Below, piece after piece: positions 1 through 3,000 of a stretch of DNA of 17,057 nucleotides; position 1 is the first letter of the stretch; every line of letters begins with the position of its first letter. Source of the stretch: a virus (lineage: Duplodnaviria; Heunggongvirae; Uroviricota; Caudoviricetes). A program made the position numbers. The DNA is taken from IMG/VR virus record IMGVR_UViG_2713897042_000003, positions 1 through 17,057 of that record, one strand, 5' to 3'.

Positions 1-3000
1 TGCAAGGCACTACTTCTTATAAGCACATTACCATTAGTAGAAGGCAGTAACTGAAACTCCTGAGATAACGAGTTATCATCACAGGTATTATGTATCACCC
101 CGTTTTTAAAGGCCTCCATGCAAGTCCCCTGGGCAACATTAACAAATTTCACTGTGCCGGCATCTTTACCATCCACAACCTTCCAGTTCCGATTCTCACC
201 AAAATTTACTGAATCAAAAGGAGTATACCCCCAAAGCCAGTTACGAACAGGTCTGGCCCAAATAGTAAGCAGCGCCCCACCAGTGCTCATTATTGAAACT
301 TCAGGAAACTCAGTGTTGTTGACTCCAAGTGTTGGAGTTGCACCGTTTGAAGTCACTGCAATACCTTGTCCAGGGATTCCAACCAATTCTACATTTTTTC
401 CCGGAGGAGAAGGTGAATCTCCGATCCCATTCGAGCAACCAGTAATTATAAGTGTGCACAAAAATGCAATTAGTTTTTTATCCACTGTATTTCCTCCTCT
501 GCACCACCTCTTTTTTATAAAAAAACAGAAACAACAAAGCAACAAAAATATTACTGGTAAGATTAATGAGAAAATGTGAAAGCAGCACAACAAACAAGTT
601 CATTATAACGTTCGTTATTGTTTTTCAGGTTACAAACAGCAAACTACTATATAATTCTTTATATTCCCAAACACTATGCAACATGACCATAACGTCTGCA
701 GTTCGGTGGAGTTTGCTCAAACATACTCGCCAGTCTGTTTCATTACGTAATACACCTGTTTAGGTGTATTCATAAGACCAGCTAGCTATAAATGACTATA
801 TTGTTTTGCATAAGAAGTTGGTTATATAATCACCAATTAATATAAGATCCATTATTTCTCCACATTTTTATGTTAGAAGTTGCAAAGAGAAATATGATGT
901 TTCTCTTTGAGATAATTAATCATTCCTGTTGCCCACCTCACTGGTGGGCTTTTTTATGTAAAACCAACTCCTGCAGTGTTCCCCTGACATGATGACTTTA
1001 GCGATTAACCAACAGCCAGATCAGCAGACACGCCACCACCGGCACAGCAAAATCCATCAGGCTTGCCACATCCCACGCGCGCGGATCAAAACCGCCCCAC
1101 CACGGCATATTCATACGCTTGCCATGCCCGAACATTTCAATCCAGCGATATTCTGCCTGAGTGTGTTCACGAGCAATGAAGAACGTACAACCGGCTATCG
1201 CTCCGTAAGCCCAGTTTCCGGTAAAAAGACCAACCAGTATCTGCGCAGCCACAGCACAAAATGCATGAAGTAAGGGGCTTATATCCATTATTTCCTCCTT
1301 TCAGCTCCATTCCCGAAGCGGTGTTTCCAGCTCCACGACATAATCAGAGAATACAGAAACATCAAACAAGTCATCAAGAATGCGAATGTTGACAAAATAA
1401 CCGTCATTCCGGACACAGACAGGTTCTCCCTCTTCTGTTACCCCTGTTTCTGTGTAGGTGAAACCAATTTCATCAACTAACAGTTTATTCTGGAAGTCTT
1501 CATCTTCCTCCCAGTCAAGAGATGACAGGAAGGATTTAAACTCTCTGTTACCAGGAAATTTCAAAGTTAAATCTTTCATACTGCCTCCTTGATTTGCCTG
1601 TCATTTAATTCTTTAAACCAGACTCTGAAATTTCTGATGTGTCCAAACAAATGACGCGTTCCTGCTGCGGTCTGCCCACCAAACCGGTACGATGTTGCTG
1701 TAATTCCAAATATTTTACCATTAAGGTTTGTTGTATAATTACCATTGCATATTGCATTTACTGATAAATCAGATTTAGCTCTCACACCCACAATGAACCT
1801 TTCTCCATCTGAGGCAATTTGTGGCTGAACCATTCCTACGTTGGCGCTTATCTTTCCTGTTGAAACAAACCCCAACGATAAATAATTATCATCAATACTG
1901 TGCCCTCCAACATCAAATATCCTTGGCGCAACATTGGGCGGTGTACTCCAGTTCCTGCTTACTTCGCACAATACCGTAAAAGGCCGTGTTGACAGGTTAT
2001 TCTGCGATGGGATAGTAACTACATCACTTGCGCGTGTTGTTGGCATTGTAGTTACAATAAATGACGATGCCGTATTGCCCAGTTCAATTTGCGGCGTCGT
2101 CATGGTTAATGTTGAGTCATCATAGAATGGCTCATTACTTATTTTGTTTGTCATATAAAAAGCACAGTTAACGGTATCAATATCCGTATTAGCTGTATAA
2201 GTGGACTCATAGTAAGTCCACTCACCCTGTTGTTCAGCTTTGGCCGTTATAAGGGATGTATTACCGCTTACTGTTGCGATCCGGGTATCCAGATCAAGAT
2301 AAGAGTCAGCAGAGAAGGTATCTGTTCCACCAATAATAACTGAAACTCTTAACCTGCATCGTGCTTTAGCGCCTTTAACCCGGCACGAAAAAGTGAAACA
2401 TTCACCACTTGCCAGCGGGAATCTGTCTGCTGCAACCACACCATGCACAGTATAGCCACCTGTTGTTCCCACTATACTTTCCGTGGGTGTCACCGTGGCA
2501 TAATTGAACCCCCGTTTATCAGTGCCAAATGTTTTATTCAGTGCGGAATGAACAGTCCATGAGTCTGGTTTATTTGAGTTCCTCAGATAATTTGTCCTCT
2601 GTCCTTCAATCAATAAGCCATCGCGCTCAAATCGCGGTTCATCAACTTCAGCAAGCTTGAGTTGGCCGGACTTATTAATATACGTTGCTGTTGAAGCACG
2701 TTTAAACTTAACAATCTTGTCGCCTGGCATTGTTATTTCATCGTCACCTATAACAATCTTTTTATATGATGGCGAAAAACCCGTAATCATATCCAGTGAA
2801 TCGTTAAACGGTATCCACACATCAGGCAGCGGCGGCACTATATTCGCATAGGGCTCTGCAGTCACTTCCGCTGCGGCTTCTGCGCGGTCTGCCGCCTTTT
2901 CAGCTCGTGTCGCTGCCGACAGAGCCTCATCCTTTTTCTGCCCGGCCTTTGTTGCGTCTGCTGCAGCCTCCCGCGCTTTTGTGGTGGCGATTCCGGCATT

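Follow-up and report, generated by a model that had tools for sequence, protein, structure and literature searches.

The region between the tail-fibre operon and cdtA of a cdt-I prophage carries what looks like a complete transcription unit on the strand without long genes, and it raises the question of what this unit is. The initial annotation took positions 801-957 for an orphan promoter-terminator unit encoding a candidate small RNA of about 120 nt. The window, the whole stretch of 17,057 nt that was analysed, is the end of a lambdoid cdt-I prophage, and a locus of E. coli SCU-115 is 100% identical to it. All long ORFs of the window were found on the minus strand, in agreement with the annotation. 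The window begins inside cdtA, whose 5' part (1-487, minus strand; cdtA, type I, by the RefSeq name at the identical SCU-115 locus) encodes a protein starting with GVDKKLIAFL and bearing a lipoprotein signal, and runs off the window start. Directly upstream of cdtA lies a cdt-specific spacer (488-675) which is common to the cdt-I and cdt-IV loci and phage cdtI and for which no homologue was found in the chromosomes of K-12 and UTI89. On the far side of the putative unit, a 96-aa lambdoid gene (998-1288, minus strand) is the last of the tail-fibre operon; its counterpart in phage 21, CPT_21_24, is a ‘putative membrane protein’. The slot after this last tail-operon gene holds sitABCD as cargo in phage 21 and cif/nleH in phage cdtI.

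An intrinsic (Rho-independent) terminator is present on the plus strand at 931-955, as the initial annotation had it. It consists of a 7-bp stem with six GC pairs (GCCCACC, 931-937, and GGTGGGC, 943-949), a 5-nt loop (TCACT, 938-942) and a run of six T (950-955), U6 in the RNA. With terminator quality defined as seven perfect pairs, at least five of them GC, and at least six T in eight, 0.017 sites are expected by chance per 17-kb window, both strands counted. The terminator is the sole site of that quality on the plus strand of the window, and two more are located on the minus strand (3636-3619 and 14222-14206). Only the plus strand has the U-tract. Of 18 sequence variants, 16 have an unaltered stem; in the others C937T gives a G.U pair and the rarer C933A breaks one pair. 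Between cdt and chromosomal copies, themselves about 15% diverged, the terminator stem is identical.

A possible function as insulator between the tail operon and cdtA had also been put forward. The orientation is wrong for this purpose: being on the plus strand, the terminator cannot halt minus-strand read-through from the tail operon into cdtA, and no minus-strand terminator was found between 998 and 487 in the terminator scan. Against a boundary role in the opposite direction, it can be said that a plus-strand terminator at the tail-operon boundary is not a general requirement, since none was found at the equivalent place in phage 21 or in another lambdoid prophage. The possibility that the terminator of the paoABCD-yagP operon was stranded here by a deletion was rejected, as K-12 has no similar sequence downstream of paoD, yagP or ptwF.

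The promoter-like site on the plus strand (801-830) combines TTGTTT (801-806), an 18-nt spacer and TATAAT (825-830), with a predicted start near 837. The consensus TATAAT of the initial annotation was confirmed, but the -35 box it called plausible matches the consensus at three of six positions, and as a promoter the site is no better than chance. It is the best plus-strand promoter-like site in the spacer, yet it is absent from the output of an automated promoter scan, and an equal or better plus-strand score was obtained in 54% of 2,000 dinucleotide shuffles of the spacer (488-930, 443 nt, 31.6% GC). The TTG of the -35 box is conserved. The -10 box reads TATAAT in cdt-I, CATAAT in cdt-IV and CCTAAT in K-12 and in about 1,300 chromosomal copies, which do keep the terminator; TATAAT is a two-base, cdt-lineage-specific variant of the chromosomal CCTAAT. 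Phage cdtI, the only sequenced inducible Cdt-I phage, shares only positions 1-814 with the window and, because the homology ends there, has neither the -10 box nor the hairpin nor the terminator. Promoter and terminator are conserved together in prophages with this type of junction, though not in phage cdtI or in the chromosomal copies with CCTAAT. Since the two co-occur in these prophages, a transcript in the corresponding lysogens stays plausible.

Judged by its homology, the stretch 801-957 is the middle of a block of about 460 bp (676-1134) that is a relic of the chromosomal yagU 5' region. The whole block shows about 80% identity with UTI89-type chromosomes, and positions 676-888 show 77% identity with the 5' end of yagU and the yagU-paoA spacer of K-12, where the homology ends at 888|889. 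Of 5,426 complete genomes, 1,300 contain at least 80% of the stretch 780-990, each of them once and next to yagU. Among the chromosomes bearing the block are those of UTI89, CFT073 and Nissle 1917; in UTI89 (CP062228.1) the terminator occupies 313,385-313,361. The corresponding prophage region lies at 251,8xx-252,0xx in the cdt-I strain SCU-115 (CP054368.1) and at about 1,513,2xx in the cdt-IV strain APEC O1 (NC_008563.1). In the chromosome, the block is located at the yagU end of the thrW/vat island (PMC6592367). Within the window, the truncated 5' end of yagU (674-729, minus strand) was identified by alignment with yagU of K-12 and UTI89, and the N-terminus of YagU (MNIFEQTPPNRRRYG...) is recognisable in a relic ORF at 724-674 (MFEQTPPNCRRYGHVA). 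A relic of the yagU promoter and leader follows (730-888, minus strand), 75-90% identical to the K-12 and UTI89 sequences. Positions 792-765 correspond to the main yagU promoter, TTTACA-N16-AATACT; both hexamers are degraded in the cdt lineage, and the window version reads TTTATA-N16-AATACA. The yagU starts found by Cappable-seq in K-12 (302183, 302139 and 302075 in U00096.2) map by homology to the minus strand of the window at about 755 (major), 799 and 863.

The correspondence with the chromosome extends beyond this block. A 96-nt element, E, is located just downstream of cdtC and also in the chromosomal ecpE-ykgJ spacer; it matched no family in an Rfam scan and contains no plus-strand terminator. 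With E in both places, the gene orders of the chromosome (E-ykgJ-yagU-up-T-96aa') and the phage (E-cdtCBA-yagU'-up-T-96aa) match. A Klebsiella phage with yagU as cargo does not share the upstream DNA, its homology being limited to the coding region.

With slightly better than even confidence, we regard the locus as a relic block with a functional boundary terminator and not as a self-contained prophage small RNA gene. The block comprises about 16 first codons of yagU, the yagU promoter and leader and, from 889 on, a segment with hairpin and terminator, which borders on the last tail-operon gene at its 3' end. In the proposed history, cdtABC would have replaced ykgJ and most of yagU within the cargo slot of a lambdoid phage. 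The terminator would probably act at the boundary, stopping rightward plus-strand transcription that leaves the AT-rich cargo before it enters the tail-fibre operon in antisense direction. In lysogens of this type the TATAAT may fire and produce an RNA of about 120 nt ending at the terminator, which would then be a by-product and not a dedicated regulator.

The segment of 113 bp with hairpin and terminator (889-1001) was found in cdt-I/IV prophages and at the yagU-proximal end of the thrW island in UTI89-type chromosomes only; in the latter, a 3' remnant of the 96-aa lambdoid gene comes after the terminator. A scan of 185,579 species-representative genomes with the terminator pattern yielded 52 matches, the sole homologue being one contig 99% identical to UTI89 and the others unrelated generic terminators, and no donor species for the segment was identified among these genomes. 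The putative small RNA unit is absent from all 50,697 phage records, except for a partial match in phage cdtI.

The hairpin and terminator could also mark an old recombination junction. In that case, 889-1001 would be one arm of an attachment site or else the terminus of an integrated element, whose integrase transcript once ended at the terminator, as at lambda tI/sib. The K-12 homology breaks at 888|889 within the left arm of the hairpin, the block in UTI89-type chromosomes is followed by a plus-strand C-terminal integrase fragment and a partial thrW copy, and a hot spot for islands and prophages lies to its right. However, the best direct repeat toward the integrase side is an unconvincing, AT-rich 11 nt, and the partial thrW copy, the real att site, to which the integrase fragment belongs, is about 400 nt away and unrelated to 889-1001. 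The integrase of phage cdtI is encoded on the cdt strand, not upstream of the terminator, and none of the sequenced phages has 889-1001 beside an integrase gene. Recombination of this kind is considered very improbable. An integrase terminator of the lambda tI/sib type in the present arrangement was rejected, as no int or att adjoins it in the window or in phage cdtI and no core-site repeat was found.

The perfect 7-bp stem-loop of the initial annotation exists, one position to the right of the reported 885-905: the arms AGAGAAA and TTTCTCT (886-892 and 900-906, plus strand) enclose the loop TATGATG, and in RNA the hairpin at 886-906 grows to a 12-bp stem (883-909). The plus-strand RNA 837-957 has a predicted folding energy of -33.4 kcal/mol (z = -4.77), against z = -1.99 for the minus-strand RNA of the same stretch. 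Upon comparison of the cdt and chromosomal copies, one of 28 stem positions and 10 of 44 non-stem positions were changed, and the sole stem change leaves the two bases paired as G.U in plus-strand RNA. Covariation was assessed in 69 copies from viral and metagenome scans, representing 18 distinct variants. None of the 29 predicted pairs was altered on both sides; one-sided changes to G.U do occur, and five of the six stem changes confined to one side produce G.U in plus-strand RNA. The sequence diversity of 18 variants is low, so this test has little power. The conservation of the stems and these changes to G.U suggest that a plus-strand RNA structure is under selection.

The two hairpins could alternatively act in minus-strand RNA, where they would stabilise the 3' end of the tail-fibre operon transcript or serve as processing sites there. 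They follow the stop codon of the 96-aa gene (998) at a distance of 49-112 nt, both also form in minus-strand RNA, and no other minus-strand structure or terminator is present from 998 to cdtA. Yet neither hairpin is followed by a U-tract on that strand, where the fold z-score is just -1.99 and where the U.G pair of the window in the extended stem, A886G and C937T all become A.C mismatches. Moreover, the stems persist in the chromosomal copies, though the upstream gene is a dead remnant there. This makes a function in minus-strand RNA improbable.

The 18-codon micro-ORF of the initial annotation is present on the minus strand (852-796), preceded by a GGAG Shine-Dalgarno motif. In the chromosome it has 8-9 codons; its stop codon was lost in the cdt lineage through the same substitutions that made TATAAT on the opposite strand, and all differences among cdt lineages are nonsynonymous. 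The absence of a credible ORF in the interval was broadly confirmed, with the qualification that a GAGA/GGAG motif precedes a plus-strand ORF starting at ATG 897; this ORF, whose length is 31 aa in the cdt lineages and 14 aa in the chromosomal copies, is not conserved. Micro-ORFs on both strands were assessed for coding potential, and no conservation was found. A type I toxin-antitoxin locus was rejected on the grounds of an ORF of 8, 9 or 18 codons depending on the lineage, the exclusively nonsynonymous variation and the polar peptide.

The most direct alternative is that of the initial annotation, a genuine small RNA with a regulatory role, about 120 nt long, that is divergent from the yagU/cdt side, starts near 837 and ends at the terminator. 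It would act by overlap of its 5' end (837-863) with minus-strand transcripts from about 863, or as antisense to tail-operon read-through, possibly with Hfq. Several observations sit uneasily with a relic. The terminator faces away from yagU, about 200 nt upstream of that gene, and no plus-strand gene precedes the terminator in the prophage or in the chromosome; this is the geometry expected of a tiny divergent transcription unit. The layout of the predicted plus-strand RNA, with a hairpin, an AU-rich linker and a GC-rich terminator with U-tail, is the usual one for an Hfq-type small RNA. The strength of the terminator with its U6 tail, the perfect -10 box in cdt-I next to CATAAT in cdt-IV, the conserved TTG, the difference in fold z-score between the strands and the conserved stems with changes compatible with G.U on the plus strand all argue in the same direction. 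In addition, conservation is highest, at 90%, in the presumptive 5' region (837-885), and the equivalent of the K-12 minus-strand start at about 863 would create a 5' overlap of 26 nt.

This conservation, however, is accounted for by the yagU leader and its start sites on the opposite strand, so no plus-strand RNA is needed to explain it. The promoter is at chance level and absent from the roughly 1,300 chromosomal copies that retain the terminator, and the unit is missing from phage cdtI. The pair-breaking variants C933A and T901C circulate in chromosomal copies, compensatory changes are lacking, and the complementarity to the cdtA leader is not significant (RNAduplex, z = -0.6). A search of the window with Rfam 15, in gathering and E-value modes, gave nothing at gathering score; weak matches to isrD (20.7 bits) and MicA (20.6 bits) align to the terminator only. 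No report of a small RNA upstream of yagU was found in the literature. Of the proposed orphan unit, the conserved plus-strand terminator stands, while the small RNA gene is weak, given the chance promoter and the lack of an Rfam family and of covariation; we consider it unlikely. A wider version is more doubtful still: more than 1,300 sequenced E. coli of the UTI89/Nissle type would encode a hitherto unrecognised small RNA divergent from yagU, and cdt-I/IV prophages would have acquired it together with a better -10 box. In these prophages, its 5' end would overlap transcripts running from the relic yagU promoter region toward cdtABC. If true, toxin expression would be tied to antisense or Hfq-dependent control.

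The textbook-looking promoter-terminator pair in this AT-rich prophage cargo proves to be a real terminator and a chance promoter in a fossil of host DNA, and such a pair should not be listed as a small RNA gene without transcript data. The collinearity of the cdt-I/IV cassette with the chromosomal ecpE-ykgJ-yagU region and the edge of the thrW island may matter more than this correction, as it provides a concrete, testable history of the entry of cdt toxin genes into lambdoid phages. A degraded promoter region of yagU, a strongly acid-induced acid-resistance gene, is kept upstream of cdtA, which raises the question whether remnants of yagU control still influence cdt expression. No paper naming yagU together with cdt loci was found in the literature.

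Among known systems, EcsR2 (PMC4350180) is a small RNA specific to E. coli and encoded between yagU and ykgJ. It is likewise located beside yagU, in the same chromosomal neighbourhood rich in phage remnants, but on the 3' side, which was replaced by cdtABC in the prophage, and is thus not the element described here. Prophage-encoded Hfq-dependent small RNAs of pathogenic E. coli include AgvB, AsxR, StxS, DicF and IpeX. The locus resembles these as a short non-coding unit that belongs to a lambdoid prophage, adjoins a toxin operon and ends in a GC-rich terminator with U-tail; unlike them, it has no sequence or Rfam match and a chance-level promoter. Zor-Orz, ShoB-OhsC and TisB-IstR are type I toxin-antitoxin pairs with divergent transcripts overlapping at their 5' ends. 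The short minus-strand ORF, preceded by a strong Shine-Dalgarno motif, and a putative divergent plus-strand RNA overlapping its 5' end by about 16-26 nt recall this arrangement, but an ORF of 8-9 codons in the chromosome or 18 in cdt has too little hydrophobicity for a membrane toxin.

Juhala, Hendrix and colleagues reportedly described morons in HK97 and HK022 as insertions behind the tail-fibre genes, each made up of a promoter, a gene and a terminator. The present cassette is similar in occupying the slot directly after the last tail-operon gene and in its AT-rich DNA, own promoters and factor-independent terminator at the edge. It differs in that the terminator is opposite to the cargo strand and upstream of the cargo genes, so that it does not end the cargo operon, and in that the cassette includes a dead fragment of the host gene yagU. 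Host DNA is also carried by specialised-transducing lambda phages (lambda bio and gal), lambdoid phages which, as here, bear a host gene in truncated form, together with the DNA upstream of it, at the tail-fibre/accessory end. In contrast to these, the host-like block described here is about 20% diverged from present E. coli, shows no recognisable att junction and is flanked by phage-type sequence on both sides (element E and the 96-aa gene). These features agree equally well with an old cargo swap and with aberrant excision.

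All long ORFs in the window, the tail end of a lambdoid prophage, are located on the minus strand: J (3656-7192), the side tail fibre gene (1576-3603), a 92-aa ORF (1301-1579), a 96-aa ORF that is the last tail gene (998-1288) and the first part of cdtA, running from 487 downward. Window bases 1-2000, the part compared, are 100% identical to E. coli SCU-115, for which RefSeq names the genes of the locus cdtA, cdtB and cdtC, type I. The tail fibre ORF is a single intact frame of 675 codons in the window, whereas RefSeq gives its SCU-115 counterpart (5097-7118 of L001, the SCU-115 cdt-I locus) as two incomplete pseudogene fragments. 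The unit under study (801-957, plus strand) falls within the 510 nt of spacer that separate cdtA from the 96-aa ORF.

The plus-strand intrinsic terminator that the initial annotation placed near 931-957 is real, with a 7-bp stem (GCCCACC, 931-937, and GGTGGGC, 943-949), a TCACT loop and a T6 tract (950-955). Sites of this quality are expected at 0.017 per 17-kb window on both strands; three were found, the one at 931-955 being the single plus-strand one. Since the minus strand has no U-tract here, the terminator is one-directional; a gap of 42 nt (956-997) lies between it and the stop codon that ends the last tail gene. The late operon itself holds two strong intrinsic terminators on the minus strand, one at 3619-3636, separating the J and side tail fibre genes at a place where a terminator is annotated in phage 21 too, and one at 14206-14222 among tail genes. 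The 7-bp hairpin reported ahead of the plus-strand terminator is present as well, although it had been placed one base too far to the left; its arms are 886-892 and 900-906 (plus strand), and in RNA the stem lengthens to 12 bp. Plus-strand RNA from 837-957 folds at -33.4 kcal/mol (z = -4.77), against z = -1.99 for the minus strand.

On grounds of homology, the block holding the unit was shown to be a relic of the host yagU region. Pairwise BLAST aligned 676-888 with K-12 (77%) and 676-1134 with UTI89 (80%), the K-12 match taking in 55 nt from the start of yagU together with the yagU-paoA spacer. A truncated yagU start is found at 674-729 (minus strand; relic ORF MFEQTPPNCRRYGHVA, compared with MNIFEQTPPNRRRYG in YagU), next to the yagU upstream region at 730-888 (minus strand), homologous to K-12 and UTI89. 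The breakpoint, between 888 and 889, falls inside the left arm of the hairpin: there K-12 turns toward paoA, whereas UTI89-type chromosomes keep the same hairpin and terminator. Beyond the terminator, all that is left of the 96-aa gene in these chromosomes is a 3' remnant; an integrase fragment of 45 C-terminal codons and an incomplete copy of thrW come next, the block being the yagU-proximal end of the vat-carrying thrW island (PMC6592367). Of 5,426 complete E. coli genomes, 1,669 gave matches in a sensitive search with 780-990; coverage reached at least 80% of this query in 1,300, at about 83% identity and in one chromosomal place, which in UTI89 is directly upstream of yagU. A scan of 185,579 species-representative genomes found no homologues of the unit in other species, the one related hit being a contig 99% identical to UTI89. 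Locus L063 (7697-11350) holds a second lambdoid prophage, inserted at the thrW fragment and adjoining the relic block; the cargo that follows its 96-aa gene includes a ParA-like ATPase (281 aa) with two AT-rich ORFs (132 and 221 aa), which may form a defence module.

In all, 69 copies were gathered (E. coli genomes, viral contigs, metagenomes); they represent 18 distinct variants. Between the window and UTI89, only one of the 28 positions in the two hairpin stems differs (A886G, keeping a G.U pair on the plus strand), compared with 10 of the 44 non-stem positions of 886-957 (hypergeometric probability of one stem difference or none, estimated at about 0.025). Of the transitions in the stems, five leave a plus-strand G.U pair and one disrupts pairing (A.C), while one more stem pair is broken by a transversion (A.A); RNAalifold found no pair with changes on both sides. 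Pair-breaking variants (C933A and T901C) circulate among the chromosomal copies. The terminator stem looks constrained. Identity is 90% in 837-885, 85% in 886-957 and 70-78% in the flanks. The conservation of 837-885 needs no plus-strand RNA, because the minus-strand start site of K-12 falls in this segment, together with a Shine-Dalgarno motif and the start of a micro-ORF.

The promoter half of the unit was described as a consensus TATAAT with a plausible -35. The TATAAT is present at 825-830 (plus strand), but the -35 is only TTGTTT, at a spacing of 18 nt. By a simple weight-matrix score no plus-strand site of the spacer ranks above TTGTTT/TATAAT; yet when this 31.6% GC sequence is dinucleotide-shuffled, 54% of the shuffles hold a plus-strand site at least as good, and the promoter half is therefore not above chance. 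The TTGTTT-N18-TATAAT site was absent from the output of the promoter-scan tool. The SCU-115 and 2009C-3133 types have TATAAT as the -10 box, the APEC O1 type and the type of a further cdt-lineage copy (L064) have CATAAT, and K-12 and every chromosomal copy have CCTAAT, the weight matrix finding no plus-strand promoter in these last. The CC-to-TA change creating TATAAT also destroyed the stop codon of a minus-strand micro-ORF, which is 8-9 codons long in chromosomal copies but extends to 18 in cdt lineages, with entirely nonsynonymous variation. Coding micro-ORFs or a type I toxin were dropped after this ORF comparison, as lengths differ and the variation is nonsynonymous. The TATAAT box was treated as a lineage-specific accident in decaying DNA; it may fire, giving an RNA of about 120 nt.

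The conserved stems, the strand bias of the G.U changes, the good plus-strand fold and the position of the terminator, about 200 nt upstream of yagU and pointing away with nothing to terminate, would all suit a real divergent small RNA from 801-957. This main rival is nevertheless considered rather unlikely, given a promoter at chance level that is absent from the 1,300 chromosomal copies, the pair-breaking variants, the lack of a family match and phage cdtI, which has lost the whole unit. That sequenced, inducible phage shares only window 1-814 (92.9%), continues with other cargo (cif, nleH-like) and is without the -10 box, hairpin and terminator. The initial observation is confirmed in part and its interpretation has partial support. 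The unit is an ordinary object, a conserved intrinsic terminator in a host-DNA fossil with a chance promoter ahead; of the proposed promoter-terminator pair the terminator stands, and 801-957 is a doubtful, low-priority small-RNA candidate. Pairing of the putative RNA with the cdtA leader was tested and dropped.

At 931-955 the only possible action of the terminator is to end plus-strand transcripts from the cargo. A boundary role is its most likely function: plus-strand transcripts leaving the AT-rich cargo would be ended before an antisense run through the tail operon. An insulator between the tail operon and cdtA, as first suggested, is contradicted by the orientation, the terminator facing the wrong way; the terminator scan found no minus-strand terminator between 998 and 487, so late transcription can read into cdtA. 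An operon-deletion scar was rejected, no similar terminator following paoD or yagP in K-12; a lambda tI/sib-like integrase terminator or att arm and a general boundary terminator in lambdoid phages were also tested and dropped.

The 96-aa gene is widespread in lambdoid phages, homology to the window setting in at about 1002 in 53 phage records. In phage 21, where it is called 'putative membrane protein', it closes the tail-fibre operon; variable cargo follows it in those phages, e.g. sitABCD in phage 21. Directly downstream of cdtC, outside the window, lies a conserved, unannotated element of about 96 nt, E (L001 1807-1900), also present in the chromosomal ecpE-ykgJ spacer (1737-1808 of L005, the K-12 yagU locus) and in 187 lambdoid phage records, including Stx phages, HK97 (AF069529.1 20942-21039), phiP27 and VT1-Sakai. 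In the L063 prophage, E (8023-8071) comes immediately after the 96-aa gene. No Rfam family matched E, and the scan for terminators found none in it. From the shared order and the position of E, the chromosome (E, ykgJ, yagU, upstream region, terminator, partial 96-aa gene) and the prophage (E, cdtCBA, truncated yagU, upstream region, terminator, 96-aa gene) are collinear; the stretches flanking the cassette are window 488-1001 and L001 1807-1905. Judged by these gene orders, cdtABC occupies the place of ykgJ and most of yagU in the chromosome. Our literature search found no paper naming yagU together with cdt loci, and what the collinearity says about how the cdt-I/IV cassette originated is a modestly interesting by-product of the analysis. 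In the zinT-cdtC interval, beyond the window, L001 1506-1560 gave weak tRNA-/tmRNA-like Rfam matches, possibly a prophage attachment site; ARAGORN found no tRNA there. A yagU homologue (90% aa identity) is cargo of Klebsiella phage ST13-OXA48phi12.4 (L126 2989-3615), between the Q-like region and the lysis genes, and yagU therefore travels on phages; the DNA upstream of this homologue is unrelated.

In K-12, yagU ranks among the genes that acid induces most strongly, and it helps the cells to survive pH 2 (PMC1626474). Among the Cappable-seq entries listed, which for this region are all on the K-12 plus strand (the window's minus strand), yagU-strand start sites are found at 302,183 (score 159), 302,139 and 302,075 of U00096.2 (PMC4782308), which correspond through L005 to window positions of about 755, 799 and 863 (minus strand). 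The major start site matches the scan promoter TTTACA-N16-AATACT of the chromosomal copies; in the window this promoter reads TTTATA-N16-AATACA, both hexamers being weakened. A K-12 transcript assembled from an RNA-seq compendium (302,852-302,935; PMC10392735), likewise among entries listed for the K-12 plus strand only, corresponds to window 862-779 (minus strand). The known small RNA EcsR2 lies on the opposite side of yagU (PMC4350180). At 796-865 (minus strand), about 115 nt upstream of yagU, a GGAG Shine-Dalgarno and an ATG are conserved in K-12, UTI89-type and cdt copies and open a tiny ORF (MELILIGD or MMELIFIGD), with which the K-12 start at 302,075 and the assembled 84-nt transcript coincide; it may be an upstream ORF or leader of acid-induced yagU. 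On the plus strand, a small ORF (897-992; 3110-3154 of the UTI89-type locus L004) has a Shine-Dalgarno-like motif and start codon within the hairpin. Its stop is lost in the cdt copies, giving 31 codons. In the chromosomal copies it has 14 codons and ends in ...CPP, its stop codon lying in the loop of the terminator, a layout reminiscent of a translation-sensitive attenuator.
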